Assembly (NCBI GenBank): GCA_034002745.1
Contig: JAVEZY010000001.1
Coordinates: forward strand, 15,428 to 79,427
Source: Gammaproteobacteria bacterium
Lineage (GTDB): Bacteria > Pseudomonadota > Gammaproteobacteria > SZUA-140
Direction: 5' to 3'
Length of the DNA stretch: 64,000 nt
Part shown: piece after piece, positions 3,619 to 34,875 of the stretch
Position numbering within the stretch: position 1 is the stretch's first letter
Layout of the letters: every line of letters starts with the position of its first letter
Made by a program: the position numbers and the translations under genes
The notes under the pieces: model-generated
What the model was told of the DNA's origin: nothing
What the model saw: only the letters and a program-made list of their open reading frames with translations
Databases searched by the model: none

Positions 3619-3627
3619 GAGATTTGC

Positions 3628-4772: not shown

Positions 4773-4784
4773 GGCGGCCGCACG

Positions 4785-6220: not shown

Positions 6221-6322
6221 ATGGACCGCCCGGCGCGAACGAATGCCGGATCGAAATGACGCTGCATCCTCATTTGCGGGATGGCAGGCGCTTCAAGACA
6301 CAGTGAGCGATCCCGAGAAGGG

Positions 6323-7177: not shown

Positions 7178-8844
7178 ATCGGAGCGACCATTTCACCCAG
7201 TTTGGCGGTAAGTTTCAGATTCTCGCTGTAATCCACGGGGCAGTCGATGATGCTGACGGTATTATCGGCCAGGGCCCGGCGGAGCACAGGAAGCAGGTCT
7301 TCGGCGCGTTCGATGCGGTACCCCTTGGCGCCGAAGGCCTCGGCATACTTGATGAAATCCGGATTGGTGAAGCGCACGTTGCTGCTGCGTCCATACCCTT
7401 GCATCTGTTTCCATTCTATCAGACCGTAGCCGTTGTCATTCCAGACCAGAATCACAAAAGCGAGACCCAGCCGCATGGCGGTCTCGATTTCCTGGGAATT
7501 CATCAGGAAGCCGGCGTCCCCGGTGACAGCGACGACCGCTCGCTCCGGGCGCGCAAGCTTGGCTGCGATGGCTCCTGGCACTGCGATGCCCATGCTGGCG
7601 AAACCGTTGGAAATCAAGCATGTATTCGGGTGTTCGCAGCGGAACATCCGCGCCATCCACATCTTGTGGGCGCCCACGTCGCAGATCACGATGTCTTCCA
7701 GGCCCAGGGCGGTGCGCAGATCCCAAATGATCTTCTGGGGCTTGAGCGGGCAGCAGTCATCACGGCCGTGCCGGTTCATGTCCTCGATCAGGGCTTCCCG
7801 CAACGGACGGAGCAGGTGGCCCGGATGGGGTGTCGCCGCGGCTGCCACCCGGGTCAGCGCGTGCCTGATGTCGCCGACGACACCGGCCGCCACTTCATAG
7901 CTGGCATCGACCTCGGCAGCCGCCGAGGCGATGTGGATGATTTTCCGGTCGCGGGTCGGGTGCCAAAGATGAGGATGGTATTCCACCAGATCGTAGCCGA
8001 TGCAGATGATGACATCGGCATGATCGAAGCCGACGTTGACGTAATCGCGCGACTGCAGGCCGGCGGTGCCGAGCGCCAGCGGGTGGCCGAATGGAATTAT
8101 TCCCTTGGCCATGAAAGTGTTGGCCACCGGAATGTTGAGGCGATCGGCGAAATCCTGCAGCTGCGCGCAGGCCCCGGCGCGGATCACGCCGTTGCCGGCA
8201 AGGATCATCGGGCGCTGGGCGTTGCTGATGATCTCCGCGGCGCGCAGCACGCTTTCCGCTGCGGGTTCGGGCGCCAGCGGATGTGAAACCCGCAGCGGCT
8301 CATCGTCAACGTCCATGGCCGCGATATTCTCGGGAAACTCGATGAAGGCGGCGCCGGTGCGTTCCATCTGCGCCAGCTTGAAGGCCTTGCGCACCACTTC
8401 GGGAATGATCCTCGGTGTCAGAAGACGCGAGGAATATTTCGTGATGTGCTGGAAAATGCTTTCCAGGTCCAGTACCTGATGCGATTCCTTGTGCAGCCGG
8501 TTGGTGCCCGCCTGGCCGGCGATGGCGACCAGGGGGGCGTAGTCCATGTTGGCGTCCGCGACAGCCGTGATCAGATTGGTCGCGCCCGGGCCCAGGGTGG
8601 ACAGGCAGACGCCCGCGCGGCCGGTGAGGCGGCCATAGACGTCCGCCATGAAGCCCGCGCCCTGCTCGTGGCGGACAGTCACGAAGCGGATCGAGGAATC
8701 CTGGAGTGCATCCATCAGGGCGAGGTTTTCCTCGCCCGGGATGCCGAAGATGTATTCGACGCCCTCGTTCTCCAGGCACCGGACGAACAGCTCGGCTGCC
8801 TTCATCGAGGTTCGCGCGCCCACTCTTGCGGGAGGCGCGAACAA
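7174..8844 (-). CDS. alsS: Thiamine-diphosphate-dependent acetolactate synthase, catabolic AlsS/BudB type
   Basis: 556 aa. N-terminal AELFVRCLENEGVEYIFGIPGEENL...RHEQGAGFMADVYGRLTGRAGVCLSTLGPGATNL and C-terminal GDAGFLMNSQEIETA...WNDNGYG TPP-binding motifs match catabolic ALS. No alsD is present next to it. Confidence 0.75.
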   Translation of the reverse strand: MFAPPARVGARTSMKAAELFVRCLENEGVEYIFGIPGEENLALMDALQDSSIRFVTVRHEQGAGFMADVYGRLTGRAGVCLSTLGPGATNLITAVADANMDYAPLVAIAGQAGTNRLHKESHQVLDLESIFQHITKYSSRLLTPRIIPEVVRKAFKLAQMERTGAAFIEFPENIAAMDVDDEPLRVSHPLAPEPAAESVLRAAEIISNAQRPMILAGNGVIRAGACAQLQDFADRLNIPVANTFMAKGIIPFGHPLALGTAGLQSRDYVNVGFDHADVIICIGYDLVEYHPHLWHPTRDRKIIHIASAAAEVDASYEVAAGVVGDIRHALTRVAAAATPHPGHLLRPLREALIEDMNRHGRDDCCPLKPQKIIWDLRTALGLEDIVICDVGAHKMWMARMFRCEHPNTCLISNGFASMGIAVPGAIAAKLARPERAVVAVTGDAGFLMNSQEIETAMRLGLAFVILVWNDNGYGLIEWKQMQGYGRSSNVRFTNPDFIKYAEAFGAKGYRIERAEDLLPVLRRALADNTVSIIDCPVDYSENLKLTAKLGEMVAPI

Positions 8845-8865
8845 TCCGGCTCAGGAGTCATGCGA

Positions 8866-9516
8866 TCAGTTGAGCGTGGCCGCTTCGCGGGCAACCAGGT
8901 GATCCATGATGTCGATCAAGGATTCGAACGAGCCAGCCGAGGCCGGGCTGGTGCGATACTTGCCATTGATCACCACTGCCGGCGTTCCCTCGATGCCGTA
9001 GCGGCGCGTCAGCTCGCGTGCGCGCGACACCTTGCTGTTGACGGCGAATGAGTTGAAGGCCTCCAGGAACTCGGCCTTGTCCACACCCTGGCGGGCGAAG
9101 AAATCGGCGAGGCTCTGTTCCGTGTCCAGCCGCTCCTTGCCGACGTGCATCGCGTCGAAGAGCTTGCCATGGATGCGTTCGAGCACGCCCAGAGCCTCCG
9201 CAGCGTAGTAGGCGCGGGCATGAATCGCCCAGCGTTCACTCAGGATCGCGGGCAGGCGTATGAACTCGACATTGGCCGGCTCACCGAGCAGCCACCGTTC
9301 GACATAGGGCTGAAAACGGTGGCAGTGCGGGCAGCCGTACCAGAACACCTCGACGACTTCGACCTTCTCCGGGTTGGCGGTCGGCTGCGCCGGTACGATC
9401 TTATGATAGGCCTGGCCTTCCTGGTACTTGACCGGGCCGGCTGCGATCGCCAGCAGCGGCAGCAGCAGCAGACTGTACACGGCGAGATGGCGCAGAATTC
9501 TCATTTCTTTCCTCAT
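8866..9516 (-). CDS. dsbA: Thiol:disulfide interchange protein DsbA
   Basis: Signal peptide followed by WYGCPHCHRF, which contains the CPHC active site. 216 aa. Confidence 0.85.
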   Translation of the reverse strand: MRKEMRILRHLAVYSLLLLPLLAIAAGPVKYQEGQAYHKIVPAQPTANPEKVEVVEVFWYGCPHCHRFQPYVERWLLGEPANVEFIRLPAILSERWAIHARAYYAAEALGVLERIHGKLFDAMHVGKERLDTEQSLADFFARQGVDKAEFLEAFNSFAVNSKVSRARELTRRYGIEGTPAVVINGKYRTSPASAGSFESLIDIMDHLVAREAATLN

Positions 9517-9639
9517 CGTTTGTTACTCTTGGGACCGACGCTCGCCGCCAGAGTTCCGCCATCGCGGATGACGGCGCGCACGCATGGGCGAAATTATACG
9601 TTAAGATGCGCAGCACCGCGGCCGCGCCGGAGGCGCATT

Positions 9640-10272
9640 GTGAACGAAACCGTTGATACAGCTCGTCCCTATCGCAACGCCCGTTTCGTGCATGGCGCCG
9701 CGAGAGGCGTCCGCCTGCCCGCCGACAGTGGCCGCGAGGTTGCATTCGCGGGCCGCTCGAACTCGGGAAAGTCCAGTTCCATCAACACCATCACCGGCAG
9801 GCGCGCGCTTGCACGCACCAGTCGGACGCCGGGACGCACGCAGCAGATAAACTTTTTCGATCTCGACGACGACCGTCGCCTGGTCGATCTGCCGGGGTAT
9901 GGTTACGCCAAGGTCTCAGCTTCGCTGCGGCGGGACTGGCAGCCATTGATCGAGAATTATCTCAATGGCAGGCGCTCGCTCGTCGGCCTCGTCCTCACCG
10001 TCGATTGCCGTCGCGAACCGGGCGAACTCGATGCCATGCTCATCGAATGGTGCCGCCACACGGAGCTGCCTCTGCATGTGTTGCTGACCAAGGCAGACAA
10101 GCTGAGCCGCAATGCTGCCGCGCAGGCGCTCAGGCGCTGGCGCGAGTTTCTCGCTGCCGACGACCTGGTGTCCGTGCAGCTGTTCTCGGCGCTTTCCCGC
10201 CACGGAGTGGAGGACGCGCGCGCGAAACTGGCCGAATGGCTGGATTTCGAGCAAAAAAAAGCCCCAGTGTAG
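9640..10272 (+). CDS. engB: Ribosome biogenesis GTP-binding protein YihA/EngB
   Basis: A GTG start at 9640 gives about 210 aa. GRSNSGKSS G1 motif, DLPGYG and TKADK (G4) motifs are present. The gene is divergent from dsbA. Confidence 0.8.
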   Translation: MNETVDTARPYRNARFVHGAARGVRLPADSGREVAFAGRSNSGKSSSINTITGRRALARTSRTPGRTQQINFFDLDDDRRLVDLPGYGYAKVSASLRRDWQPLIENYLNGRRSLVGLVLTVDCRREPGELDAMLIEWCRHTELPLHVLLTKADKLSRNAAAQALRRWREFLAADDLVSVQLFSALSRHGVEDARAKLAEWLDFEQKKAPV

Positions 10273-20269: not shown

Positions 20270-22711
20270 TCAAAACAGCGGCTCGGCGCTTGCGCCGCCG
20301 GTCTCGGTTCCCGTCCCGACGCTGCGTACTTCCGCGCGTCGCTGAGGTACCAGTTCCGCCTGGAAGGTCTCGAAGATGCCATCCTTCCGATCGCTGTCCG
20401 CAAGCAGGCCGGTTTCCGGGTCTATGCGCACGGTGACCAGGCCCGGCGGACGCACCAGGGGATGTTCCGGCGCGCCCCGCAGTGCTTCACGCGTGAAGTG
20501 TATCCACATGGGCAGGGCTGCGCGGCTGCCGGTTTCGCCGTTGCCGAGCGAGCGGGGCTGGTCGAAGCCCAGCCAGGTCACCGTCACCAGATCGGAGTTG
20601 TAGCCGGCGAACCAGGCGTCATGAAGATCGTTGGTCGTCCCCGTCTTTCCCGCCAGATCGCTGCGTCCGAGTTGCCGCGCGCGCACCCCGGTGCCGCGCG
20701 TGATGACGTCCTGCATCATGGAAGTCATCAGGTAGGCGTTCTGCGGACTGATGGCCCGCCGTGCCAGCCGCGGAAGCTGGGGCGGCTCGGCGCTCTGCGC
20801 GTCGGCATATGACTTGGCCGCATCCACGCTGGCATCGAACGCGACCGCGATCGACGGGTCGGCATCGCATTCGCGGCAGATGATATCCGGTGCGGCGCTG
20901 TAGACCACGGCATCGCTGCCGTCGCGGATTTCCTCGATGAAATAGGGTGCCACGAGGAAGCCGCCATTGGCGAACACCGCATAGCCTGTCGCGACCTGCA
21001 ATGGCGTCACCGCGCCGCTGCCGAGCGCGAGCGACAGGTCCCGCGGCAGGGAAGAGCTGTCGAAGCCGAAGCGCCCGGCATGGGTGATGGCATGACGGAT
21101 ACCGATGGCGCCGAGGAGCCGGATCGAGACCAGGTTGCGCGAATTCATCAGCGCGACGCGCAGCCGGGTCGGACCGAAGAATTCGCCGCTGTAGTTCCCG
21201 GGCCGCCAGGTGTCCTCGAGCGCGGGATCGTCGAACACCACCGGCGCATCGTTGATCATGGAGGCCGGCGTATAGCCCTTTTCCAGCGCCGCCGAATAGA
21301 TGAACGGCTTGAACACCGAGCCGGGTTGCCGCTGGGCCTGGGTGACGCGGTTGAAGTGGCTGCGATTGAAGTCGAATCCGCCGGCAAGCGCGACGATGGC
21401 GCCAGTCTCCGGATCGGCCGAGATCAGCGCGCCCTCGGCCTCGGGCCGCTGGGCCAGGCGCCAACCATCCGTGGCTGTGGATACGCGGATCAGATCGCCG
21501 ACCTGCAACACATCGGCCGCGCTGCGCGGCGGCGGACCGCGCCGGTCGCTGTCCAGCTGGCGACGTGCCCAGCTGAGGCCATCCCAGGCGATCCGGGCCC
21601 GCGAACCATCGACGAAGGCGATCTCCACCTCTCGTTCCTCGACGGTGGTCACCGCGGCCGGAATGAGAACCGGGTTCGCCGGAACCTTCGCCAGCGCCGC
21701 CCGGAGCGCCTCCGCATCCTCGAGAGTCGCCGGATCGAGGTGTGATTCCACGCCTCGATAGCCATGCCGGCGATCGTACTCCAGCAGCGTTTCGCGTAGC
21801 GCTCGCATGGCGGATTGCTGCAGGCGGGAATCGAGCGTGGTGTAGACCTTGAATCCCGAGGTGTAGGCGGCTTCCTCTCCGTAGCGTCCGACCACGTAGA
21901 GGCGCACCATCTCCGCCATATGATCGGCTTCCACCTCGGTCGACAGGCTGTGAAGCCGAGCGACATCAGAGGCTTGCATGGCTGCATCACGCTCCGCGGC
22001 GCTGATGAATCCTAGGTCATGCATGCGCCGCAGCACGTAATTGCGGCGGATCACCGCCCGTTCGGGATCGGCGATGGGGTTCGACCTTGACGGCGCCTTC
22101 GGCAGGCCGGCGATCATCGCCATCTGATCCAGCGTCAAGTCCTGCAGCGCCGCGCCGTAATAGGTCTGGGCGGCGGAGGCGACGCCGTAGGCCCGGTTGC
22201 CGAGATAGATCTTGTTCAGGTACAGCTCGAGAATCTCTTCCTTGTCGAGTTCGTGCTCGATGCGCAGCGCGAGGAAAATCTCACTCACCTTGCGCAGATA
22301 AGTCTTCTCGCTGCTCAGGAAGAAGTTGCGCGCGACCTGCATGGTGATGGTGCTTCCGCCCTGGCTCTTCTCGCCGGTGCGAATGAGATTGACGACCGCG
22401 CGCAGGATGCCCTGGTAGTCGACGCCGGGATGCTCGAAAAAGCGGTCGTCCTCGGCCGCCAGCACCGCCTGGATCATCCGTTCCGGCGTGTCTCCGTAGC
22501 GCACCGGCATGCGGCGCACTTCTCCGAACTCGGCCAGGACCATTCCGTCCCGACTGTAGACCCGCATCGGAACCTGGAGCCGGATGTCGCGCAACGCCTC
22601 GATTGAGGGCAGTCCTGGGGCGACCACGAGCCAGGCGGCGCCGACGGCGATTGCGCCGATGGCGGCCATGCCGGCGACTCCGAGGATACCGGCGAAAAGG
22701 AGTCTGCGCAT
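20270..22711 (-). CDS. mrcA: Penicillin-binding protein 1A (bifunctional transglycosylase/transpeptidase)
   Basis: 813 aa. N-terminal TM, glycosyltransferase motifs (EDDRFFEHPGVD, GGSTITMQ) and transpeptidase SxxK/KTG motifs (GSVFKPF..., KTGTTND). It is divergent from pilM, as in pseudomonads. Confidence 0.9.
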   Translation of the reverse strand: MRRLLFAGILGVAGMAAIGAIAVGAAWLVVAPGLPSIEALRDIRLQVPMRVYSRDGMVLAEFGEVRRMPVRYGDTPERMIQAVLAAEDDRFFEHPGVDYQGILRAVVNLIRTGEKSQGGSTITMQVARNFFLSSEKTYLRKVSEIFLALRIEHELDKEEILELYLNKIYLGNRAYGVASAAQTYYGAALQDLTLDQMAMIAGLPKAPSRSNPIADPERAVIRRNYVLRRMHDLGFISAAERDAAMQASDVARLHSLSTEVEADHMAEMVRLYVVGRYGEEAAYTSGFKVYTTLDSRLQQSAMRALRETLLEYDRRHGYRGVESHLDPATLEDAEALRAALAKVPANPVLIPAAVTTVEEREVEIAFVDGSRARIAWDGLSWARRQLDSDRRGPPPRSAADVLQVGDLIRVSTATDGWRLAQRPEAEGALISADPETGAIVALAGGFDFNRSHFNRVTQAQRQPGSVFKPFIYSAALEKGYTPASMINDAPVVFDDPALEDTWRPGNYSGEFFGPTRLRVALMNSRNLVSIRLLGAIGIRHAITHAGRFGFDSSSLPRDLSLALGSGAVTPLQVATGYAVFANGGFLVAPYFIEEIRDGSDAVVYSAAPDIICRECDADPSIAVAFDASVDAAKSYADAQSAEPPQLPRLARRAISPQNAYLMTSMMQDVITRGTGVRARQLGRSDLAGKTGTTNDLHDAWFAGYNSDLVTVTWLGFDQPRSLGNGETGSRAALPMWIHFTREALRGAPEHPLVRPPGLVTVRIDPETGLLADSDRKDGIFETFQAELVPQRRAEVRSVGTGTETGGASAEPLF

Positions 22712-22812: not shown

Positions 22813-24538
<1,726 letters not shown>

Positions 24539-24542
<4 letters not shown>

Positions 24543-25189
24543 ACCTGAATTTCGACCTGTCGCAGTTGCGCGAAATCGACTTCAACGACGTCGCGCGCTG
24601 GCCGCGGCCGATCAAGGCTGCCGCGATCGTACTGCTGAGCGTGGCGGTCCTCGGTGCGGGCCTGTGGCTGGATACCAAGAAGCAGTTCGAATCGCTGGAA
24701 ACGACGCGTCAGCAGGAGAAGGTGCTCAAGGATGAGTTCCTCGTGAAACAGGCCAAGGCAGCCAACCTCGACGCGTACAAGGCCCAGATGGAAGAGATGC
24801 GACGCTCGTTCGGCGCCATGCTGCGGCAGCTTCCGAGTCGCACGGAGGTCGCCGAACTTCTGGTCGATGTGTCCCAGACCGGGCTTCAGAGCGGTCTGGA
24901 GTTCGAACTCTTCAAGCCCGAAGCGGAAAGGCCCGCTGATTTCTATGCGGAGTTGCCGATAAAGATGAAGGTCGCCGGCAGCTATCACGAGTTCGGCCGT
25001 TTCGTCAGCGATGTCGCGGCCTTGTCCAGAATCGTGACCCTGCAGGATTTCACCGTCGGCACGCGCCAGACCGCGGCGGCGCGGGATCCGAAGGCCACCA
25101 GAAGCATCGAAGACCCGCTGGTGATGGAAGTGACAGCGCGAACCTATCGCTACCTGGAAGATGAAGAACTTCTGCAGGAGGAAGAATGA
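24539..25189 (+). CDS. pilO: Type IV pilus assembly protein PilO
   Basis: Position and size (216 aa), a TM segment, and a coiled-coil followed by an alpha/beta domain. 4-nt overlap with pilN. Confidence 0.8.
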
Positions 25190-25761
25190 TCGGCGATGAC
25201 GGAAGGACGAGCCGGAGCGGTGCGCGATGGCCGGTCGCCCGAACCTTCGTAAAGGCGCTGGCACCGATGACGGCGCTCATTCTGGCCGCCTGCAGCGACA
25301 GCGGGACGTCCGATCTGCGCCAGTTCGTCGAGGAAGCGAAGCAGCGCCAGGGTCGGGTCGAGGCGCTGCCCGAATTCGCGCCGGTGCAGACCCACGTTTA
25401 CGTAGCCGACAGTCTGCGCGATCCATTCACGTCGGAGACCCGCGAGACGATCGCCGAGACGGCCGCGAGAAGCGGCGGCGGTCTGGCGCCCGACGTCCGG
25501 CGCCGCAAGGAGGTGCTGGAATCCTATCCGCTCGATTCTCTGAGCATGCTGGGAACGCTGGAATTCCAGAATTCGACCTGGGGATTGGTCAAGGCTCCGG
25601 ACGGCGTGGTTCATCGCGTACGAACGGGAAATCACCTGGGACAGAACTACGGCAAGGTAAAGGCGATACAGGCGCAGCGGGTGCTGCTGACCGAAATCGT
25701 ACCCGATGGCCTCGGTGGCTGGGAGGAGCGTGACGCGACTCTGGCCATGAACGAGCAATGA
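25186..25761 (+). CDS. pilP: Type IV pilus assembly lipoprotein PilP
   Basis: LILAACSDSG lipobox. Position between pilO and pilQ. The true start may be the internal Met at 25267. Confidence 0.7.
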   Translation: MIGDDGRTSRSGARWPVARTFVKALAPMTALILAACSDSGTSDLRQFVEEAKQRQGRVEALPEFAPVQTHVYVADSLRDPFTSETRETIAETAARSGGGLAPDVRRRKEVLESYPLDSLSMLGTLEFQNSTWGLVKAPDGVVHRVRTGNHLGQNYGKVKAIQAQRVLLTEIVPDGLGGWEERDATLAMNEQ

Positions 25762-25785: not shown

Positions 25786-27927
25786 ATGGTAACCCGGGAT
25801 TTGAATCGTCTACGCGCATGCGGAAAAATGCGCGCGTTGCGCAGCGTGTGTGCGGGAATGACACTGCTCGCGGCGGCCGTTTGTGCTCATCCGTCCCTGG
25901 CGGCGCAGCGTCTCCAGAGCTGGGATGTCGTGACCCTGCCCGGAAACAAGATCCAGATCAAGCTCGATGTGGCCGCGGACGACGCGCCCAATATGCTGAG
26001 CTTCAGCACCGACAACCCGGCGCGGATTGCCCTCGACTTCCCCGAGGCGACCAGCGCGCTGCCGCGGCGCAAGGAGATCGGCGCCGGCGTCGTGCGCAGC
26101 CTCAATGCGGTCGAATCCCAGGGTCGCACGCGCGTGGTGATCAACCTGGATCGCATGGTGCCGTACGAGACCCGCGTCGAGGATGGCGCCATCTATATCG
26201 TGCTCGAGGGATCGGCTGCCGTTCAGGCGGCGCAGACTCAGTCCTCGCCGCTGTCGATGAGCACTGCGGATCGGCCGGCGCCGGGTGCTGGCGCTGTTAC
26301 CAACCGCATCACCGGCGTTGACTTCAGTCGCGGCAAGGCGGGCGAGGCGCGCATCACCATCGGCCTCTCCGACGCCGGCATCCCGGTCAACATCGACCGC
26401 AGCGGTGGCAAGATACTTATCGACTTCCTGAACGCCCGCCTGGCCGAAGAACTGCGCCGGCGCATGGATGTGGTCGACTTCGCCACGCCCGTGACCACGA
26501 TCGACACCTTCTCCCAGAACGGGGCCGTCCGCCTGGTGGTGGAAACCGAGGGCGAGTTCGAGCATATGGCCTATCAGGCGGATACCCAGTTTACGCTCGA
26601 GGTCAAGCCGGTTACCAAAGAGGTGCGCGAGGCCCGGGCCCGTCAGGAATACACCGGCGAGCGGCTGTCTCTGAACTTCCAGGATATCGAGGTGCGCGCG
26701 GTCCTGCAGATCATCGCCGACTTTACCGGGATGAACATGGTGACCTCGGACGCCGTGGGCGGAAACGTCACCCTGCGCCTGCAGAACGTGCCTTGGGATC
26801 AGGCTCTGGACATCGTGCTCAAGAGCAAGGGTCTGGCGATGCGTCAGGCGGGCAACGTCATCATGATCGCGCCGGCCGAGGAGATCGCCGCCCGCGAGAA
26901 ATCCGAGTTCGAATCGCAGAAGCAGATCGAGGAACTCGCGCCGCTGACCTCCGACCTGGTCCAGATCAACTACGCCAAGGCCGAGGATATCGCCTCCCTG
27001 CTCAAGGCGCGGGAAAACTCGATGCTGTCCGAGCGCGGTAACGTCACGGTGGATCAGCGCACCAACACCCTGCTGGTTCGCGACACGGCAGACAAGCTGC
27101 AGGACATCCGCAATCTGGTCAGCAAGCTGGACATTCCGGTGAAGCAGGTGCTGATCGAGTCGAGGGTCGTGGTGGCCAATGATGACTTCAGCCGCGACCT
27201 CGGCGTGCGGGTCGGCGGCGCAGGAGTGCGCAGCAATGGTTCGCGCGGAGCGATTGCGGTTGGCGGATCGCTTTCCGGTACCGACACCATGGTCGGCACG
27301 GCGCCGCTGCCGGTGGCCATGCCTTCCCTGGGCGATCGCCTGGCGGTCAATCTGCCGGCCGCCAACACCTCGGGCAGGCCGGCATCCTTCGCGCTGGCGG
27401 TGCTGGGCTCCGACTACCTGATCGATCTCGAACTGTCGGCGATGCAGGCCGAAGGCCGCGGCGAAGTGGTTTCCACGCCGCGCGTCATCACCTCGAACCA
27501 GAACGAGGCGACGATCAAGCAGGGCGTCGAGATCCCCTATCTGACCGCGGCGTCCAGCGGTGCCACCACGGTGCAGTTCAAGGAGGCCGTTCTCGGCCTG
27601 ACGGTCAAGCCGCAGATCACGCCGGACGACCGCATCATCCTCGATCTCACCGTGAGCAAGGACAGCGTGGGCCAGGTGTTCCAGGGTGTGCCCAGCGTGG
27701 ACAAGCGCGCGGTTACTACCCAGGTGCTGGTCAGCAACGGCGAAACCGTGGTGCTCGGCGGCATCTACGAGCAGGAGCGCTCCGAGGGTGTTTCCAAGGT
27801 GCCGTTGCTCGGCGATCTGCCGCTGCTCGGCGTGCTGTTCCGTCAGTCCGCCAAGATCGACAGCAAGAACGAACTGCTGATCTTCGTCACGCCGAAGATC
27901 CTCAAGGAGTCGCTCACCATGCGGTGA
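25786..27927 (+). CDS. pilQ: Type IV pilus secretin PilQ
   Basis: 713 aa. AMIN-like N-terminal repeats, N0/N1 domains and a C-terminal secretin domain (VLVSNGETVVLGGIY...VPLLGDLPLLGVLF). Confidence 0.9.
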   Translation: MVTRDLNRLRACGKMRALRSVCAGMTLLAAAVCAHPSLAAQRLQSWDVVTLPGNKIQIKLDVAADDAPNMLSFSTDNPARIALDFPEATSALPRRKEIGAGVVRSLNAVESQGRTRVVINLDRMVPYETRVEDGAIYIVLEGSAAVQAAQTQSSPLSMSTADRPAPGAGAVTNRITGVDFSRGKAGEARITIGLSDAGIPVNIDRSGGKILIDFLNARLAEELRRRMDVVDFATPVTTIDTFSQNGAVRLVVETEGEFEHMAYQADTQFTLEVKPVTKEVREARARQEYTGERLSLNFQDIEVRAVLQIIADFTGMNMVTSDAVGGNVTLRLQNVPWDQALDIVLKSKGLAMRQAGNVIMIAPAEEIAAREKSEFESQKQIEELAPLTSDLVQINYAKAEDIASLLKARENSMLSERGNVTVDQRTNTLLVRDTADKLQDIRNLVSKLDIPVKQVLIESRVVVANDDFSRDLGVRVGGAGVRSNGSRGAIAVGGSLSGTDTMVGTAPLPVAMPSLGDRLAVNLPAANTSGRPASFALAVLGSDYLIDLELSAMQAEGRGEVVSTPRVITSNQNEATIKQGVEIPYLTAASSGATTVQFKEAVLGLTVKPQITPDDRIILDLTVSKDSVGQVFQGVPSVDKRAVTTQVLVSNGETVVLGGIYEQERSEGVSKVPLLGDLPLLGVLFRQSAKIDSKNELLIFVTPKILKESLTMR

Positions 27928-28035
27928 GCGTGAGCCCGCCGCGCGGGCACGATGAAAGGGAACGATTCAGAAAGCGCGCGTGGCGTCCGCCCGATCAGGG
28001 CCGGCGCATCACGCAGAACCGGAGGACATGGGGAG

Positions 28036-29967
28036 ATGTGGGCATACTTGCGTAGAACGGTGGCTGTGATGGCCGTGCTGCTGGTCGCAGGCTGCGGCGG
28101 AGATGACGATGGCTTTGTCGGCGGCAACGGCGATCCGGCTACCGGTGTTGCGGTGTCGCCCGCTGCCCTCACGCTGCTGGCCAGTTCGCCTCAGCTTGGT
28201 TCGAGCGGCGCCAGCAATGTCGTGATCACCGCCATTGTCCGGGACGGCAGCAATAACTTGATCAGCGATGTGCCGGTCAGTTTCTCGTCCGACAGTGGGG
28301 CATTGGAAGTAACGCAGACCACGACCGGCGGGGCCGGTCAGGCGCTGGCGCTGCTCACTACCGGAGGAGATGAGACCAACCGCTCCATCACGGTTCGGGC
28401 ATTCTCGGGTGATCTCGAGGAAAGCGTCAGTGTGAATGTGACCGGGACGAGGCTGAGCATCAATGGCGAAGGTTCCGCTGCTCTCAACGACAGCACTGCG
28501 CTGACGATCTCCCTGCGTGATTCGGCAGACAATCCAATATCGGGGCGTACCGTCACAGTAAATTCGGCCCTCGGCAATACGATTGTCAGTCCGACGTTGA
28601 CCACCAATGCCAATGGCCAGGTTCATCTCGTCCTGAACGTGAACAACCCTGGTACGGATACCATAACGGCATCCGCGCAGGGTGCGAGTGCGGTTCATAC
28701 GATCGAGGTTTCCGGGGACGAATTCTTCATTACCGCGCCAGCGCCGGATGCGATTATTCCGATCAATACCTGCGTCGCCGTGACCGCCAATTGGCAGCAA
28801 TCCGGCACTCCGGTGAGTGGCGAGGCGGTGAGTTTCTCGACCACGCGTGGCACGCTGTACGCTGATGATGGCTGTGCTAGCGCGGTGACGCCCGTGTTGA
28901 CCAATGGCGCCGGTACGGCCGGCGTCTATATTCGTTCGAACAATGCCGGGCCGGCGACATTGCGGGCTTCCGCTTCCGGAGGAGTGACCACCAGCCGGGC
29001 GGTGAATTTCGTTGCCACCACGGCTTCCTCCGTCAACCTGCAGGCCAGTCCGTCGACGATTGGTCCTAACAACGGTTCGGAGACCGTGCCGCAGCAATCG
29101 ACGATCATTGCCACCGTGCGTGACGCCGACAACAACCTGGTAGCAAACAAGGTGGTCAATTTCTCCCTGGTTCAGGACAACAGCGGCGGTCAGCTGCTGT
29201 CTCCCACGGCGACCACCAATTTTCAGGGACAGGCCACGACTACCTACGTTTCTTCTTCGGCGACCACCGCTAGGGACGGTGTCCAGATTCGTGCCGATGT
29301 GGCCGAGGGTGCAAGCACAATCTCCGGTACGGTGAGTCTGACCGTCGCGCAGAGCGCGCTCTTCATCCGCTTGGGTACCGGCAATACCATCAACGATCTC
29401 AACGATACGCAATATGGCCAGCCTTATACGGCGATCGTCACCGACGCCAGTGGTAACGCTGCCGCCGGCGTGCGACTCAATCTTGCCGTGAACCCTGTTG
29501 ATTCAACCTTGCCGGGCAACCCCGCTGCCTATGCCAAGGGGCGCTATGAATGGGATGGTGCTGTTTGGTACATCCCCGGGTATCTCGGTGCGCCGCTAAG
29601 CACGATCAATGCTGAGCATGATCGATCCGAGTGCGCGAACGAAGACCGGAACATGAACGGCATACTGGACCTGATTCCGTCTACCGAGGACAACAACGGA
29701 GACGGTCAGTTGACCCCGGGTAACGTGGCTTCGGTGCCGTCCTCGGTGACCACGGGTGCGGACGGAACGTTCCAGTTCCTGATCACCTATCCCAAGCAGT
29801 TCGCACAGTGGGTTCAGGTCCGTCTCAGCGCCAGTACGACGGTGGATGGTACCGAGTCGATCGATGTCCAGGATTTCTGGCTGCCGGTTGCCGCCGCGGC
29901 GCTGGGCGACGAGAACGTCGCTCCTCCGGGCGCGACCAGCCCCTTCGGGATCGGCGTCTGTCCCTGA
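28036..29967 (+). CDS. Large lipoprotein with tandem bacterial Ig-like (Big_1/invasin-like) domains
   Basis: GGAGG motif about 9 nt upstream of the ATG. LLVAGCGG lipobox. Repeated blocks of about 90 aa, rich in T/S/V/N, follow, such as ...ITAIVRDGSNNLISDVPVSFSS..., ...ISLRDSADNPISGRTVTV... and ...TVRDADNNLVANKVVNF.... These resemble Big_1 repeats. The gene has its own downstream terminator. Confidence 0.6.
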   Translation: MWAYLRRTVAVMAVLLVAGCGGDDDGFVGGNGDPATGVAVSPAALTLLASSPQLGSSGASNVVITAIVRDGSNNLISDVPVSFSSDSGALEVTQTTTGGAGQALALLTTGGDETNRSITVRAFSGDLEESVSVNVTGTRLSINGEGSAALNDSTALTISLRDSADNPISGRTVTVNSALGNTIVSPTLTTNANGQVHLVLNVNNPGTDTITASAQGASAVHTIEVSGDEFFITAPAPDAIIPINTCVAVTANWQQSGTPVSGEAVSFSTTRGTLYADDGCASAVTPVLTNGAGTAGVYIRSNNAGPATLRASASGGVTTSRAVNFVATTASSVNLQASPSTIGPNNGSETVPQQSTIIATVRDADNNLVANKVVNFSLVQDNSGGQLLSPTATTNFQGQATTTYVSSSATTARDGVQIRADVAEGASTISGTVSLTVAQSALFIRLGTGNTINDLNDTQYGQPYTAIVTDASGNAAAGVRLNLAVNPVDSTLPGNPAAYAKGRYEWDGAVWYIPGYLGAPLSTINAEHDRSECANEDRNMNGILDLIPSTEDNNGDGQLTPGNVASVPSSVTTGADGTFQFLITYPKQFAQWVQVRLSASTTVDGTESIDVQDFWLPVAAAALGDENVAPPGATSPFGIGVCP

Positions 29968-30017
29968 GCGCCAGCTTGGAAAGCGCGCCCTGATTGGGGC
30001 ATGATCGATGGGCGTCA

Positions 30018-30052
30018 GGCCCGGACGGTTTGCCGTCCGGGCCTTTTCCTTT
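30018..30052 (+). terminator. Rho-independent terminator after the Ig-like lipoprotein gene
   Basis: GGCCCGGACG-gtttgc-CGTCCGGGCC followed by TTTTCCTTT. Confidence 0.7.
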
Positions 30053-30090
30053 ATACGAACATGACTTTCCTGTTGTGAACCCCCGCCGCT

Positions 30091-30681
30091 GTGCCTAACA
30101 TTAGCGACATGGAGGCACAACAGAATGTCTGGCTGATCGGTCCGATGGGGGTCGGAAAGACCACGGTGGGCCGTCAGTTGGCGCGGGCGCTGGACCGCGA
30201 ATTCATCGACAGTGACCACGAGATCGAGCAGCGCACCGGGGCGAACATCCCCTGGATCTTCGATATCGAGGGCGAGGAGGGTTTTCGTCGTCGCGAGCGG
30301 GCGGTGATCGAGGATTTGAGTTCGCGCCGCGCGCTGGTGATTGCCACCGGTGGCGGTGCGGTGATCGATCCGCGAAACCGGGCCGACATGGCGCGCAGCG
30401 GGGTGGTGGTCTATCTCAGCGCCTCGCCTGACCGTATCCATGCCCGTACCCGCCGTAGCCAGCACCGGCCGCTGCTCCGCACCGCGGATCCCCGTGCCCG
30501 TATCGCCGAGCTGATCGCCGAGCGCGACCCGCTCTATCGCGAAATCGCCGATGTCATCCTCGATACCGAGCGGCGCGGCGTGAAGAGCGCTACCGCATTC
30601 ATCGTCCGTTATCTCAGCGAGCAGCCGACCGGTGGAGCGGGAAGCGCCGGTCCGCTGGAGATGCGGAGCGTACAGTCATGA
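30091..30681 (+). CDS. aroK: Shikimate kinase
   Basis: [10 protein letters not shown]-loop and the typical shikimate-kinase layout. 4-nt overlap with aroB. Confidence 0.9.
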
Positions 30682-31769
30682 TGCGGACTCTGACCGTCGA
30701 TCTCGGCGATCGCAGCTATCCGATCCATATCGGTCCGGGGCTGCTGGCCCGGCCGGAGTTGCTCCGCGATGCCATCGCGGGCAGCGAGGTCATGATCGTG
30801 ACCAACGAGACGGTGGCGCCGCTGTATCTGGAGCCAGTGCGGGTCGCATGCGCAGGGATGCGCTGCGAGGCCGTCGTGCTGCCTGATGGCGAACGCTACA
30901 AGGATGACGCTACGCTGATGCGTATCTACGATGCGCTGCTCGGCGCGCGCTTCAGTCGCAAGACCACGGTGGTGGCCCTGGGCGGGGGCGTGGTGGGGGA
31001 CATGGCCGGTTTTGCCGCCGCCTGTTACCAGCGCGGTGTGCCCTTCGTGCAGATCCCGACCACCCTGCTCGCTCAGGTGGATTCCTCGGTCGGGGGCAAG
31101 ACCGGCATCAATCATCCGCTGGGCAAGAACATGATCGGCGCCTTCCATCAGCCGCGCGCCGTGATCGCCGACACCGGCGTGCTCGATACCCTGCCCGATC
31201 GGGAGTTGCGTGCCGGCGTGGCGGAAGTGATCAAGTACGGCCTGATCTGCGACGCCGAGTTCTTCGCCTGGCTCGAGGATCACCAGGAGGAAGTCCTGTC
31301 GCGGCAGCCCGAAGCGCTCATGCATGTCATCGAGCGCTCCTGCCGCAACAAGGCCGAGGTAGTGGCGGCGGACGAGCGCGAGAGCGGGCGTCGCGCGCTG
31401 CTCAATCTCGGTCATACCTTCGGTCATGCCATCGAGACTGGCATGGGCTATGGTGCCTGGCTGCACGGCGAGGCGGTGGCCGCGGGCATGCGCGCGGCGG
31501 CGGATCTGTCGGCACGCCTGGGCTGGATCTCGGCCGGGGACTGCGAGCGTGCGCGCGCCCTGATCGCGCGTGCCGGACTGCCTGTCGACCTGCCGGCCGA
31601 GCTCAGCACCGACAGGTTCATCGCGCTGATGGCCGTGGACAAGAAGGTGGAGGCCGGCCAGCTGCGCCTGGTGCTGCTCGACGGCATCGGTTCATCGCTG
31701 GTCACCGCGAACTTCGATCCGCAGGCACTGCGCGCAACCATCGCCGCCTGCCGGGTGGAGGGCGCTTGA
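30678..31769 (+). CDS. aroB: 3-dehydroquinate synthase
   Basis: [14 protein letters not shown], the [26 protein letters not shown]/metal-binding motif and HTFGHAIE. Confidence 0.9.
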
Positions 31770-32914
31770 ACGGCGGCGGTCTGGCGCCCTGGGCCGCGCG
31801 CGATGAAACCTCGCGCGGGCGGCGCCATCCCGAGCCGCCGCCCAGGCTGCGCAGCGAATACCAGCGCGATCGCGATCGCATCGTTCATTCCGGCGCTTTT
31901 CGCCGGCTCGAATACAAGACCCAGGTGTTCGTGAATCATGTCGGCGACATGTTTCGCACCCGACTGACGCATTCGATCGAAGTGGCCCAGATCGCCCGCT
32001 CGGCGGCGCGCGCACTGGGCCTCAACGAAGATCTCACCGAGGCCATCGCGCTGGCCCACGATCTCGGGCACACGCCGTTCGGGCACGCCGGACAGGATAC
32101 GCTCAATCGCTGCATGAAGGACTACGGGGGCTTCGAGCACAATCTGCAGTCGCTGCGGGTGGTGGACGAACTCGAGGAGCGCTATGCGGATTTCGACGGC
32201 CTCAACCTGACCTGGGAAACGCGGGAGGGCATCCTCAAGCACTGCTCGCCCGCCAACGCGCGCCGGCTCGGCGATCTGGGCGAGCGATTCCTGCAGGGAC
32301 GTCAGCCGGGCCCGGAAGCGCAGCTTGCCAATCTTGCCGACGAGATCGCCTACAACAATCACGACGTCGATGACGGCCTGCGCGCCGGACTGATCACGGT
32401 CGAGCAGCTCTGCGACATCGATCTGTTCGCCGTACAGTACCGGCGGGTGGCCGATGCCTGGCCCGGCATCTCGCGGCGGCGGCTGCTGCACGAAGTCGTG
32501 CGCCGCATGATCGATTCCCAGGTCAGCGATCTGGTGGAATCCAGCCGCGCCGCGATCGCCGCTGCCGCTCCGCACGGTGTCGAGGACGTGCGCACGGCGC
32601 CGGCGCCGCTGATCGGCTTCAGCGAGGCGATGGCGAAACGCAATCTGGAGCTGAAGCGCTTCCTGCGCGAGCACCTCTATCGTCACTACCGTGTGCGCCG
32701 CATGACAGCCAAGGCGGATCGTATCGTCAGCGCGCTGTTCGAGACGTTCATGGACGATGAGCTGCTGTTGCCGCCTGATTATCAGGACAAGATCCGCGGT
32801 GCCCGGGAGATTGCGGGTCGGGCGCGGGTGGTGGCAGACTACATCGCGGGCATGACCGATCGCTACGCCATCGGCGAATACGAAAGACTGTTCGATCCGG
32901 CCGGACTGACCTGA
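31766..32914 (+). CDS. dgt: dGTP triphosphohydrolase-like HD-domain protein
   Basis: [24 protein letters not shown]...[13 protein letters not shown]...[10 protein letters not shown] match the HD motif of the dGTPase family. 4-nt overlap with the aroB stop. Confidence 0.8.
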
Positions 32915-32938
32915 GCCGGTGGTGTCAGGCACAGTGCA

Positions 32939-33193
32939 ATGCACATCTATATGCAGACACCGCCCGGCGACGATCGACCGCCGCGCTTCTATCACCTGAT
33001 CCTGCAGCGGGACCTGCTCGGTGGCTGGTCGCTGGTAAGGGAATGGGGCACGCAGGGGAGCGGCGGCCGCATGCTCCGGGATCATCATCCGGATCGCGAT
33101 GAAGCAACGACGGCCATGATGCGCATCCGTGATGAACAACTCCGACGCGGTTATCGCGTGGTGTTCTTCGAGGGAGAGCAACTGAGCGAATGA
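32939..33193 (+). CDS. Small WGR-domain protein
   Basis: RFYHLILQRDLLGGWSLVREWGTQGSGGRM...RRGY matches the bacterial stand-alone WGR pattern (FYEL.LQ.DLFGGW.L.RRWGRIGT.G...KGY). Its stop overlaps the start of the next gene. Confidence 0.6.
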   Translation: MHIYMQTPPGDDRPPRFYHLILQRDLLGGWSLVREWGTQGSGGRMLRDHHPDRDEATTAMMRIRDEQLRRGYRVVFFEGEQLSE

Positions 33194-34875
33194 TTTCCGC
33201 TTCCGCCAGCGCGGATGATTCCGGTGCGGATGGCGGCAAAGCCGCGCCATCGCACCGCATGGCCGGCGATCCCTTCCAGTCCTGGTGCGATGAAAGCGCC
33301 TGGTATCCCGACCCGACCCGCGAAAACAGCCTGAAGCTATTGCTTCATCTCGCGCCCTATAGCGATCTGCTTCTCGTCACCGGCGAGAGCGGGAGCGGCA
33401 AATCTCTGTTTATAAAGAAGTTCATCGCCGGGGCGGGCGACACTTGGCGCGTCCTTTCATTGCCCGGCGGCCCGGCGCTGGATGATATATCCCTGCTGGA
33501 GTCGCTGGATCAGGAACTGTCGGTACGCCCCGATGGGGATGCGGACCGGGAAGAGCGCCTGCGTCGGCTGAGACGCGGCCTGTTCGTCCTCCGCCGCGGC
33601 GCCCTGCTGCCGGTCCTGGTCGTGGATGATGCGCATCTGTTGCCGTCGTCGGCCTTCCAGTTTCTGGTTGAACTCACCGAGCCGCGGGAGGATGGAGAAA
33701 AACCGATCGCGGTGGTCCTTGCCGGGGAAGCGTCGGCGCTCGGGTCCCGCATCGAGGGGGTCGGTGATCGCCTGCAGGCGCGCGTGGCCCATGTGTTCGA
33801 ACTGCAGGCGCTCACTGAAGCGGGCACAGGTGCATATATAAGGCATCGCCTTGCGCTCGCCGGTATGGAGACGAGCACCGCCTTCACTCCCGCAGTGGTT
33901 CGCTACATCCATACCGCCTCACGCGGATTACCCAGCCGCATCAATGAGTTCGCGCGGGTGGTGCTGGAAGAAGGGCAGCGCAGGCTGCGCAGGAAAGAGG
34001 ACGGTGCGGTTGGCGGTGCGGCCGGTCCCAGCGATGCCGGCATCCTGTTGCGTTATGGATTTGCGGCCCTGGTGGTGGCGTTGGCCGGAGTCGCACTCGT
34101 CTATCGGGAAGAGCTTTCTACGCTCATGCGCGACGATCGGGGAAGTTCTGTTGTCGGGTCCGCGGCCACCGTCCGGGAACCGACTGATTCTGTTGAGGTA
34201 TTATTTGGCGACTCGGCGCCGGATCCAGAGGTTCCAGGCAAGCTGCCTGATAATTCTGATGTTTTTCTCGATCTCGAAGGCGGCTCCGCGGAGGCGGTCA
34301 CCGAAATTTTCGAAGGAGACCGAGAACTATCTGATTCGGATGGTGTGTTATCTGTCGACGAGAGTCGTGTGGAAGAGGCCGAAAGCGGGGTGAGCGTTGC
34401 TTCCGCCGACCGGCAGGAGGAGAGGACGTCCGCGAAAGCTCCTGCGCCGCTACGCGTGCCCGAGGAACCTGGCGTTGTCGGGACTCTGGACGGACCGGAA
34501 GTGGTGGCCGGCAAGGGGCCGCAAGGCGCTTCTGCCGCGCAGTCGCCAGGGACCGAGGACCCATGGGCGCCCCGCCGCGAAGCCTGGCTGCTCGCACAGG
34601 CGCCGCACACATGGACGGTGCAGCTTTTCGCCAGCCGAGAGGAACGGCTGCTTGCGCTGATCGAAGAACATCGTCTGGAGTCCGGCGCAGCTGTATTCCG
34701 GGCGCGCAGCGGAGATCCGGCTCTGTATGCGCTGGTCTGGGGTCTATTCTCAAGCCGGGAGGAGGCGAACCAGGCGATCGAGGGGGATCTCGCCCACATT
34801 GCCGGGCTGAAGCCCTGGGTACGATCCATGGGCGATATTCAGGCCGCCATCGCCTCCCAGGAGAGCGGCGGGTGA
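33190..34875 (+). CDS. AAA+ ATPase with C-terminal SPOR domain (ExeA/DamX-like)
   Basis: N-terminal P-loop GESGSGKS, a long disordered acidic/Pro-rich linker, and a C-terminal SPOR-like segment (WTVQLFASREEERLLALIEEH...YALVWGLFSSREEANQA). It occupies the same position as PA5037 of P. aeruginosa. Confidence 0.7.
   Translation: MISASASADDSGADGGKAAPSHRMAGDPFQSWCDESAWYPDPTRENSLKLLLHLAPYSDLLLVTGESGSGKSLFIKKFIAGAGDTWRVLSLPGGPALDDISLLESLDQELSVRPDGDADREERLRRLRRGLFVLRRGALLPVLVVDDAHLLPSSAFQFLVELTEPREDGEKPIAVVLAGEASALGSRIEGVGDRLQARVAHVFELQALTEAGTGAYIRHRLALAGMETSTAFTPAVVRYIHTASRGLPSRINEFARVVLEEGQRRLRRKEDGAVGGAAGPSDAGILLRYGFAALVVALAGVALVYREELSTLMRDDRGSSVVGSAATVREPTDSVEVLFGDSAPDPEVPGKLPDNSDVFLDLEGGSAEAVTEIFEGDRELSDSDGVLSVDESRVEEAESGVSVASADRQEERTSAKAPAPLRVPEEPGVVGTLDGPEVVAGKGPQGASAAQSPGTEDPWAPRREAWLLAQAPHTWTVQLFASREERLLALIEEHRLESGAAVFRARSGDPALYALVWGLFSSREEANQAIEGDLAHIAGLKPWVRSMGDIQAAIASQESGG

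Follow-up and report, generated by a model that had tools for sequence, protein, structure and literature searches.

The interval between pilQ and aroK in the DNA analysed here (the window, 64,000 nucleotides of a gammaproteobacterial contig) holds a real open reading frame, gene X, which by sequence criteria is the last gene of the pilMNOPQ operon and is conserved in over a hundred gammaproteobacterial species. Few envelope machines have been studied as thoroughly as that encoded by pilMNOPQ, an operon usually described as having five genes; to our knowledge, the canonical locus of Pseudomonas or E. coli has no counterpart to gene X. We propose that the product is a surface lipoprotein adhesin that would be co-transcribed with pilMNOPQ, and our confidence in this reading is about even. 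A literature search for Ig-like or Big_1 genes in pilMNOPQ operons found no description of the gene X family, and a further one on pili in Woeseia yielded nothing specific to the gene. The locus is organized as follows.

22903–25761, + strand: pilM, pilN, pilO and pilP, the upstream operon genes (ORFs; same order and Pfam PilM_2, PilN, PilO and PilP in homologous loci)
25786–27927, + strand: pilQ, type IV pilus secretin, 713 aa (TIGR02515 IV_pilus_PilQ, 541.7 bits against a cut-off of 284)
28021–28025, + strand: GGAGG ribosome-binding site, 10 nt before the ATG at 28036 (read from the sequence)
28036–29967, + strand: gene X, Big_1 lipoprotein, 643 aa (ORF, Pfam, homologue alignment, AlphaFold2)
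30017–30052, + strand: predicted intrinsic terminator (stem-loop at 30017–30044 with a 12-bp stem, 10 G-C pairs and a 4-nt loop; T-rich tail)
30091–31769, + strand: aroK and aroB, a separate downstream unit outside the feature (AroK NF003456, 207.8 bits; ORFs)

The placement given in the preliminary description of this stretch, made from the letters alone, holds, with a TIGR02515 PilQ upstream and an NF003456 AroK downstream of the gene. The longest reading frame covers 27952–29967; we preferred the ATG at 28036 as the start because the GGAGG lies just before it and because a start with MW... is common to the closest homologues. Gene X then extends over 28036–29967, stop included, and has its own ribosome-binding site, as described before. 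The strong terminator noted after the gene is also present: the hairpin at 30017–30044 is followed by TTTTCCTTT, and the whole element is predicted to close a pilMNOPQ-X transcription unit. In the 108-nt gap between pilQ and gene X, a terminator scan found no terminator-like site, and an Rfam scan of the whole window gave no matches.

Relatives of gene X occur in 123 GTDB species representatives, and the carriers include Woeseia, Lentisalinibacter, Steroidobacteraceae, Nevskiaceae, Competibacteraceae and Chromatiales MAGs. In many related families, full-length homologues with 36–93% identity lie between pilQ and aroK as well. Among the species representatives, which span several orders, pilQ lies directly upstream of X in 73 of the 74 loci with enough upstream DNA. 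The two genes are close (median gap 47 nt, n=71), and in one locus (L092) the start of X overlaps the pilQ stop. A terminator-like hairpin precedes X in 2 of 71 loci, and a hairpin with a T-rich tract follows it in 47 of 76, the latter count coming from a custom hairpin scan that is looser than the built-in terminator scan. For instance, the hairpin after X in L024 was confirmed by eye; the built-in scan had missed it, as its T count is 4/8 when the stem is fully extended. Furthermore, the pilQ–X pair is kept in seven loci without a downstream aroK (L040, L048, L058, L062, L076, L078 and L079). We thus conclude from the short spacing, the rarity of a terminator before X and the persistence of the pair without aroK that X is tied to pilQ and does not simply fill a gap. 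Gene X is co-directional with pilMNOPQ, close to it, not separated from it by a terminator and conserved in position, and on these sequence criteria it is a member of the operon.

Conserved synteny alone is no proof of shared function, as aroK is a conserved but unrelated neighbour. Gene X might accordingly encode an unrelated envelope protein, such as one with a binding or protective role in the periplasm, that hitch-hikes in a conserved neighbourhood. The parts of the ponA / pilMNOPQ-aroKB-damX block stay together although nothing links them functionally, and we saw this order in the homologous loci too. However, where the block is broken, the linkage of X follows pilQ and not aroK, as in the seven loci above, and the gaps are very short or overlapping with almost never a terminator before X. 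We therefore regard a hitch-hiker as quite improbable. Linkage to the pil operon is not a strict requirement for the gene family, since paralogues of about 1,000 aa sit away from pilQ in L011, L093 and L094; these paralogues count against the adhesin reading.

The preliminary description had also considered a horizontally inserted gene, and the proposed comparison of GC content gave a mild difference (about 0.60 in gene X against 0.63–0.67 in the flanks). A recent insertion specific to this genome would fit this slightly lower GC, and also a mosaic, fast-evolving sequence. Yet the same position is occupied across several orders in the informative loci counted above, and no mobile-element genes flank gene X among the ORFs. 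The synteny survey thus refutes the insertion, which we consider extremely unlikely. The comparison of pilQ–aroK spacing in relatives, proposed at the same time as a check of novelty, found homologues widespread at that position, an outcome that had been named in advance as reducing the novelty.

The sequence of gene X diverges much faster than that of its neighbours. When compared to locus L001, in which PilM is 97% and PilP 79% identical (tblastn), pilQ and aroK/aroB are about 87% identical at the DNA level, and identity falls to 57–70% across the mature part of X. The dN is 0.32 for X and 0.05 for pilQ, with dN/dS of 0.30 and 0.09, respectively, and the non-synonymous divergence of X is 4–20 times that of PilM, N, O and Q. 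The signal peptide of X is 100% identical to that of P0006, the homologue in L001, and the mature part is 80–96% identical to P0003, the homologue in L012. As the two parts match different lineages, gene X is mosaic. Such a mosaic indicates that alleles of a gene already in place were exchanged, not that the gene was gained, which also speaks against a recent insertion. Fast divergence together with mosaicism is typical of exposed surface proteins, and the position of X as a divergence hot spot thus points to a surface role.

At the protein level, gene X encodes the following parts.

28036–28095, + strand: signal peptide with lipobox VAGC; Cys20 (28093–28095) is the predicted lipidated first mature residue
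28096–28164, + strand: Gly/Asp-rich flexible tether, aa 21–43 (pLDDT below 50 for residues 15–38; low conservation)
28165–29355, + strand: four tandem Big_1 / Ig-like beta-sandwich domains, aa 44–440 (Pfam Big_1 and Invasin_D3, AlphaFold2 strands, Foldseek)
29356–29964, + strand: C-terminal domain, aa 441–643, about 200 aa, with an Ig/MG-like core, an insert of about 75 aa and a conserved tail PPG-x2-SPFG-x3-5-C
29632–29730, + strand: two putative DxNxNG-type Ca2+-binding loops, C533-x-NED-x-N-x-NGILD ... EDNNGDGQLTPGN (conserved motif)

The lipobox reading of the preliminary description was confirmed. The gene X lipobox is LLVAGC (sequence MWAYLRRTVAVMAVLLVAGC), which fits the pattern [LVI][ASTVI][GAS]C after n- and h-regions. 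Its cysteine is invariant in 28/28 aligned homologues, and a lipobox was detected in 107 of 120 database homologues and in 74 of 80 genome loci. On these sequence criteria gene X is a signal peptidase II lipoprotein, whose Cys20 would be lipidated. The residue at +2 is G, N, S or L among the homologues, with D found once only, and the lack of Asp at this position suggests that the protein would be sorted to the outer membrane. The mature protein has an excess of acidic residues and few Lys (D+E 54, K+R 22), which we count for a surface role.

The four or more invasin/intimin-like Ig repeats that had been read from the sequence are supported by profiles and by structure prediction, the two checks proposed for them. 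Big_1 (PF02369) matched gene X with E 5e-36 in five stretches (123.1 bits against a cut-off of 34.9) and Invasin_D3 with E 1.7e-17. A match to MG4 was sub-threshold (18.2 bits against 24.7), and at E <= 1 Pfam gave only these three, with no TPR, LysM or beta-barrel family. None of the NCBIfam profiles provided a family for gene X. The AlphaFold2 model (mean pLDDT 84) has four Ig-like sandwiches at residues 44–136, 139–226, 228–327 and 332–437, mostly with pLDDT 88–96, followed by a larger terminal domain at 443–643. With the full-length model, Foldseek retrieved tandem MG/Ig arrays including invasin 1cwv, at a TM of about 0.2 that is uninformative beyond the fold class. Profile match and predicted sandwich fold together place gene X in the Big_1 family. 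Since the Big_1 arrays of invasin and intimin, which are among the fold matches, are extracellular, gene X may be extracellular as well.

A distinct C-terminal region had been noted too; it is present, although it is about 200 aa long and not 170, and its core is itself Ig-like. The alignment of homologues has C533, E536, D537, G542, E551, D552 and C642 as invariant residues, and 100 of 120 homologues carry the loop motif. The stretches D537-R-N-M-N-G-I-L-D and D552-N-N-G-D-G-Q-L fit a DxDxDG-type loop pattern, in which acidic or Asn ligands at positions 1, 3 and 5 precede a Gly and a hydrophobic residue, and no Pfam Ca-binding family matched them. The motif suggests putative Ca2+ binding by these loops. 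The cysteines of gene X are at positions 20, 246, 280, 533 and 642, and the invariant pair Cys533–Cys642 (the latter at 29959–29961) presumably forms a disulfide. When the C-terminal profile was searched against PDB sequences, the only matches were marginal and of Ig type. Fold comparison detected no lectin-like tip of the invasin/intimin type in the terminal domain; the missing ligand-binding tip, found in invasin, intimin and InvL, counts against the adhesin reading. The C-terminal module is repeated two to seven times in Big_1/fn3 proteins of 2,000–7,500 aa, and relatives of 1,714 and 2,196 aa bear canonical lipoboxes. Module-bearing lipoproteins of this length cannot fit in the periplasm, and the recurrence of the module in them thus argues for a surface role of X. 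As to the surroundings of the long forms, the ORFs that follow them in L078 and L066 are mutually unrelated when compared; the one in L066 is HlyD-like, the one in L078 is not.

Proteobacterial outer-membrane lipoproteins face the periplasm by default, which counts against a surface location. Gene X might thus encode an inward-facing outer-membrane lipoprotein whose Ig rod contacts PilQ, PilP or peptidoglycan and stabilizes, spaces or gates the secretin. In fold comparison, the terminal domain is matched best by an MG domain of the periplasmic lipoprotein alpha-2-macroglobulin. As a rough estimate, five Ig-like domains of typical size span about 20 nm, comparable to the width of the periplasm, so that a periplasm-spanning strut would also fit. 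Models for such an accessory role are TsaP, the pilotins and the protein belt around the Deinococcus secretin. The tight operon linkage to pilQ across orders agrees with an accessory role, and secretin-encircling proteins are known: DR_1364 of D. radiodurans is one such accessory protein (PMC10828601). However, a structural partner of a conserved machine would not be expected to be mosaic or to diverge 4–20 times faster than the Pil proteins, homologous modules are also found in lipoproteins much longer than the periplasm could hold, and paralogues lie away from pil genes. Moreover, Pfam detected no TPR, LysM or other known secretin-partner domains. We consider the periplasmic role possible but doubtful.

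The closest functional analogue of gene X, by its architecture as described, appears to be InvL of A. baumannii, a barrel-less invasin-like lipoprotein that needs GspD, the T2SS (type II secretion system) secretin, to reach the surface and that mediates adhesion (PMC9245377). In both proteins a lipoprotein signal replaces the beta-barrel anchor, a tandem array of invasin-type Ig domains follows, and a specialized C-terminal domain packs tightly on the last Ig domain. Both are also linked to a secretin-containing type IV filament machine, experimentally for InvL, which depends on GspD, and genomically for X, which is encoded after PilQ. They differ in that InvL has 492 aa, three Ig domains and a lectin-like tip, whereas X has 643 aa, four Ig domains and an Ig-core tip with Ca-type loops.

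This likeness raises a further reading, in which X is cargo of PilQ and the type IVa pilus machinery would carry the lipoprotein adhesin to the surface, as type II secretion does for PulA, SslE and InvL. Such a route would explain why the gene lies immediately after the secretin gene, a position kept across lineages. The indications of an extracellular location (the long module-bearing lipoproteins and the fast divergence) agree with it, as does the precedent of InvL, which has the same class of architecture and secretin-dependent display. On the other hand, known T2SS lipoprotein cargo such as PulA carries a Lol-avoidance Asp at +2, whereas 91 of the 107 homologues in which a lipobox was detected have G, N or S there. 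Furthermore, paralogues without pil linkage exist, and we know of no precedent for lipoprotein export by a type IVa pilus system. Transport through PilQ thus seems improbable to us.

Other known systems resemble gene X in part. Invasin and intimin (type Ve) share the Big_1/Invasin_D3 rod with its functional end distal to the membrane anchor. However, X has no N-terminal 12-stranded beta-barrel, no LysM and no C-type lectin-like terminal domain, and is lipid-anchored instead; residues 1–43 are a signal peptide and a disordered linker, with no T5eSS barrel in the AlphaFold2 model or Pfam matches. The pilotins PilF/PilW/Tgl and TsaP are, like X, PilQ-associated envelope proteins, the pilotins being lipoproteins as well. 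Yet pilotins are built of TPRs and TsaP of LysM and FlgT-like domains, whereas X contains no TPR or LysM and has a far higher rate of evolution than PilQ. As far as we know, pilotins and TsaP are encoded outside pilMNOPQ in gammaproteobacterial model species. The Ca2+-stabilized Ig-repeat adhesins (MpAFP/MpIBP, LapA-type RTX) differ from X in that they exceed 1,500 aa, carry RTX repeats, are substrates of the T1SS and lack a lipid anchor. Bacterial alpha-2-macroglobulin (ECAM/YfhM) is a periplasmic lipoprotein of a family with about 10 MG domains; X is a third of its length, lacks the thioester domain and has five Cys, none in a CxEQ context. A protease trap of this type, brought to mind by the MG-like fold and the ponA neighbourhood, was rejected, as X has no thioester motif and is too short.

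We therefore return to the surface lipoprotein adhesin. The preliminary description had suggested a PilQ- or pilus-associated adhesin or aggregation factor; an adhesin-like role remains the best reading, and the tie to pilQ is what the loci support. Gene X would be the sixth and final gene on the pilMNOPQ transcript, and thus its product would be synthesized each time the pilus envelope machine is. The protein would be sorted to the outer membrane and then displayed on the cell surface as a rod, in which the lipid anchor is followed by the tether of about 23 residues, four Big_1 domains and a distal Ig-like domain with two calcium-type loops and, probably, a stapling disulfide. There, stabilized by Ca2+, it may mediate adhesion or aggregation at short range and so complement the retractile pilus, which acts at long range.

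A sixth gene is thus consistently attached to pilMNOPQ in at least 100 species of Gammaproteobacteria that are abundant in marine sediments and soils (Woeseiaceae, Steroidobacteraceae and relatives). The cultured species Lentisalinibacter sediminis and L. orientalis carry the family, whose role is therefore directly testable. If X is a partner or cargo of the secretin, type IV pilus systems would gain a new component or function; in the case of cargo, pilMNOPQ-X would be a combined operon for pilus and adhesin display, similar to type II secretion, in several gammaproteobacterial orders. If X is a surface adhesin made together with the pilus, long-range attachment by pili would be coupled to short-range adhesion in dominant colonizers of particles and sediments.

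Between pilQ and aroK, the window carries X, a gene for an Ig-domain lipoprotein (28036–29967, plus strand), in the following surroundings.

Features around X in the window
20270–22711, minus strand: ponA (ORF call)
5' of pilQ, plus strand: pilM, pilN, pilO and pilP (ORF calls)
25786–27927, plus strand: pilQ (NCBIfam TIGR02515, 542 bits)
28021–28025, plus strand: ribosome-binding site GGAGG, 10 nt before the ATG at 28036
30017–30044, directly 3' of X: terminator hairpin of 12 bp (10 GC), then a T-tract
30091–30681, plus strand: aroK (NCBIfam NF003456, 208 bits)
30678–31769, plus strand: aroB (ORF call)

The longest ORF of X starts at 27952; in the alignment, the ATG at 28036 reproduces the MW... 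N-terminus of the nearest homologues. With this start, the product has 643 aa, and its N-terminus, MWAYLRRTVAVMAVLLVAGC, reads as a signal peptide containing a canonical lipobox. Big_1 (five stretches, E 5e-36) and Invasin_D3 (E 1.7e-17) are the only Pfam families above threshold. The preliminary description was thus right in every checkable detail. No terminator-like site was found in the 108-nt gap between pilQ and X. Downstream of aroB (31766–34875), we observed an HD-domain dGTPase-like gene that overlaps the aroB stop, an 84-aa WGR-like ORF (32939–33193), which is an unusual conserved neighbour, and a DamX-like protein with AAA_22 and SPOR domains (33190–34875). This trio is shared by L001 and L003, two homologous loci from other genomes.

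A database search yielded 484 relatives. More than 100 of these are full-length (about 610–720 aa, 40–93% identity), and nearly all are unnamed or annotated as 'Ig-like domain-containing protein' or 'invasin'. The order pilMNOPQ-X-aroK-aroB was present for every 620–720-aa homologue whose contig was examined, including a Salinisphaera MAG and Woeseiaceae. When one genome per GTDB species was scanned, 123 species carried a relative; the best 80 of these comprise Chromatiales/Chromatiaceae MAGs, Woeseia, Woeseiaceae, Steroidobacteraceae, Acidibacter, Nevskiaceae, Competibacteraceae, a Thiotrichales MAG and the cultured Lentisalinibacter sediminis and L. orientalis.

To assign the neighbours in these loci, we used tblastn with the proteins of the window. 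Among loci with 1.5 kb or more of upstream DNA, pilQ lies immediately 5' of X in 73 of 74 (the exception is L066). Where the downstream DNA is long enough (68 loci), aroK lies 3' of X in 60. Of the eight loci that lack aroK, seven retain pilQ-X (L040, L048, L058, L062, L076, L078 and L079); in L062, a two-component system is found downstream instead. In L092, PilQ has 804 aa and its stop codon is where a 980-aa form begins; no aroK follows. X is linked to pilQ, not to aroK. With X starts set by lipobox-guided prediction, the pilQ stop and the X start are a median of 47 nt apart (n=71; from −1 to 161), and a hairpin with a T-rich tract occurs within this gap in 2/71 loci and 3' of X in 47/76. 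X thus closes a predicted pil operon of six genes in the surveyed lineages. That X is a functionally unrelated hitch-hiker is quite unlikely, as the linkage stays with pilQ where the block breaks. The GC content of X is slightly lower than that of its flanks (0.60 vs. 0.63–0.67). However, the earlier suggestion of a unique, horizontally inserted gene does not hold: homologues occupy the same place in many lineages, and a recent insertion is extremely improbable given the synteny survey, which refutes it.

The AlphaFold2 model of X, built from a 28-sequence alignment (mean pLDDT 84), contains a disordered tether (residues 21–43), four Ig-like sandwiches (44–136, 139–226, 228–327 and 332–437) and a larger terminal domain (443–643), in line with the Ig-like repeats and distinct C-terminal region described before. 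In the model, the terminal domain is again a sandwich of Ig/MG type, which has ~75 inserted residues and a conserved tail; a search of PDB sequences with its profile gave nothing meaningful. The insert carries the most striking motif of the family, C533-x-NED-x-N-x-NGILD ... ED-x-NG[ND]G-x-L-x-PGN, in which C533, E536, D537, G542, E551 and D552 are invariant in the alignment. Cys642 is also invariant, within the tail PPG-x2-SPFG-x3-5-C, and the motif of the insert was found in 100/120 homologues. From this pattern, we read these residues as two putative DxNxNG-type Ca2+ loops and a presumed stapling disulfide. A second cysteine pair in Ig3, Cys246 (28771–28773) and Cys280 (28873–28875), is restricted to a subset of homologues with a 4-residue insertion in Ig3 and is probably an extra, lineage-specific disulfide. 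Closer homologues also have a semi-conserved acidic D/N-[GAS]-F motif 4–10 residues past the predicted lipidated Cys (28096–28120; e.g. C-GGDDDGF, C-NSEDGF, C-NDDNAF), possibly a signal for sorting or recognition.

Searching 1.8 billion representative proteins with a profile of the C-terminal domain retrieved 2,641 proteins (985 below 1e-30). In most, the module is C-terminal in proteins of 600–1,400 aa; it also occurs in 2–7 internal copies in proteins of 2,000–7,500 aa (P0121–P0132 range). Four of the long proteins (1,714–2,196 aa, plus one of 954 aa) were scanned and are Big_1 arrays, two also with fn3. Several relatives of this kind have a canonical lipobox, e.g. P0123 (2,196 aa) and P0127 (1,714 aa). 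The latter appear to form a large, seemingly undescribed class of lipid-anchored fibrillar proteins. Long forms also occur in the surveyed loci. In L078, from a Thiotrichales MAG, a 1,495-aa form with 11 Big_1 stretches (3415–7902) directly follows pilQ and precedes a 606-aa ORF without Pfam match (7979–9799); aroK is not adjacent. In L066, the gene for an HlyD-type membrane-fusion protein (7944–9701) comes right after that of a 1,304-aa form (4027–7941), which suggests a different export context for this member. Paralogues of ~1,000 aa (P0092, P0109 and P0116) are not adjacent to pilQ, and two of them adjoin IS605/TnpB/resolvase genes. Their loci are L011 (2455–5709), L094 (7001–10162) and L093 (847–3822); L011 and L094 have common upstream ABM-thiolase-ChsH2 genes and lie beside IS605 OrfB, TnpB-like, resolvase or DDE transposase genes, which hints that this subfamily is mobile.

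The DNA identity between the window and L001 is 81–95% over most of pilQ and 83–88% over aroK and aroB, and 57–72% from ~28140 to ~30100, except for a gap-rich 150-nt window with 36%. The drop sets in sharply ~45 nt past the codon of the lipobox Cys and extends as far as aroK.

Nei–Gojobori estimates, window vs. L001
X: dN 0.32, dS 1.06, dN/dS 0.30
pilQ: dN 0.050, dS 0.54, dN/dS 0.09
pilM: dN 0.014, dS 0.52, dN/dS 0.03
aroB: dN 0.088, dS 0.55, dN/dS 0.16

We compared the X region (28036–30100) with L001 (8001–9875) and L012 (6001–7941). Relative to the L001 allele (P0006), the signal peptide is 100%, the linker 74% and the mature domains just 44–65% identical, whereas relative to the L012 allele (P0003) the mature domains are 77–96% and the signal peptide just 45% identical. 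Judged from these identities, X is a mosaic: signal peptide and linker follow the L001-like genomic background and the mature domains an L012-type allele, which suggests homologous allele replacement. The mosaic pattern and the divergence of mature X indicate allele exchange together with relaxed or diversifying constraint on the mature part. Such behaviour is common in exposed surface proteins and uncommon in internal parts of a conserved machine. The fast, mosaic evolution, the very long relatives and the paralogues outside the pil locus speak against X being a periplasmic, secretin-associated accessory protein, a reading that we consider possible but doubtful even though the operon link to pilMNOPQ, the default topology of lipoproteins and the MG-type fold would suit it.

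The nearest experimentally studied analogue of X is InvL of Acinetobacter baumannii, an invasin-like lipoprotein without beta-barrel that mediates adhesion and depends on the T2SS secretin GspD to reach the cell surface (PMC9245377); PulA, SslE, MtrC and OmcA are also named as T2SS-dependent surface lipoproteins (PMC9245377). By architecture, X fits the definition of InvL-like lipoproteins apart from the tip. X has the Big_1 stalk of inverse autotransporters (intimin/invasin) but is not a member of that family, because two defining features fail: it lacks their beta-barrel as well as the C-type lectin-like tip found in invasin, intimin and InvL. It also differs from pilotins and TsaP (no TPR or LysM domains) and from alpha-2-macroglobulins (no thioester). 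The InvL precedent and the position of the gene would agree with X being a cargo exported in a PilQ-dependent manner. We regard this as unlikely, as export of a lipoprotein cargo by T4aP is to our knowledge without precedent and X has no Lol-avoidance Asp at +2; among the homologues, the residue after the lipobox Cys is G, N, S or L, with D being very rare.

The most likely reading, which we hold at about even odds, is that X is a surface lipoprotein adhesin. Its lipobox is followed by a tether, by four domains of Ig-like type and by a specialised distal domain, and the protein would be sorted to the outer membrane by Lol because of its +2 residue. We favour an extracellular location, at the cell surface, because characterised Big_1 arrays are extracellular, lipobox-bearing relatives far exceed the length of the periplasm and X evolves as a hot spot. 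The distal domain with its putative Ca loops would do the work, and X, presumably co-transcribed with pilMNOPQ, would provide an aggregation factor or short-range adhesin each time the cell assembles the pilus machine.

X combines wide conservation with rapid sequence change. Our literature search found no description of this family or of a sixth gene in pilMNOPQ operons. The family is real, conserved and uncharacterised. Its domain type is ordinary; the unusual point is that many environmental Gammaproteobacteria have it in a fixed position, as the last gene of a textbook operon. X is best classed as a putative Ig adhesin of the invasin-like, lipoprotein-anchored type that is linked to the type IV pilus secretin operon, and this linkage is strong, unreported and open to test in cultured strains.
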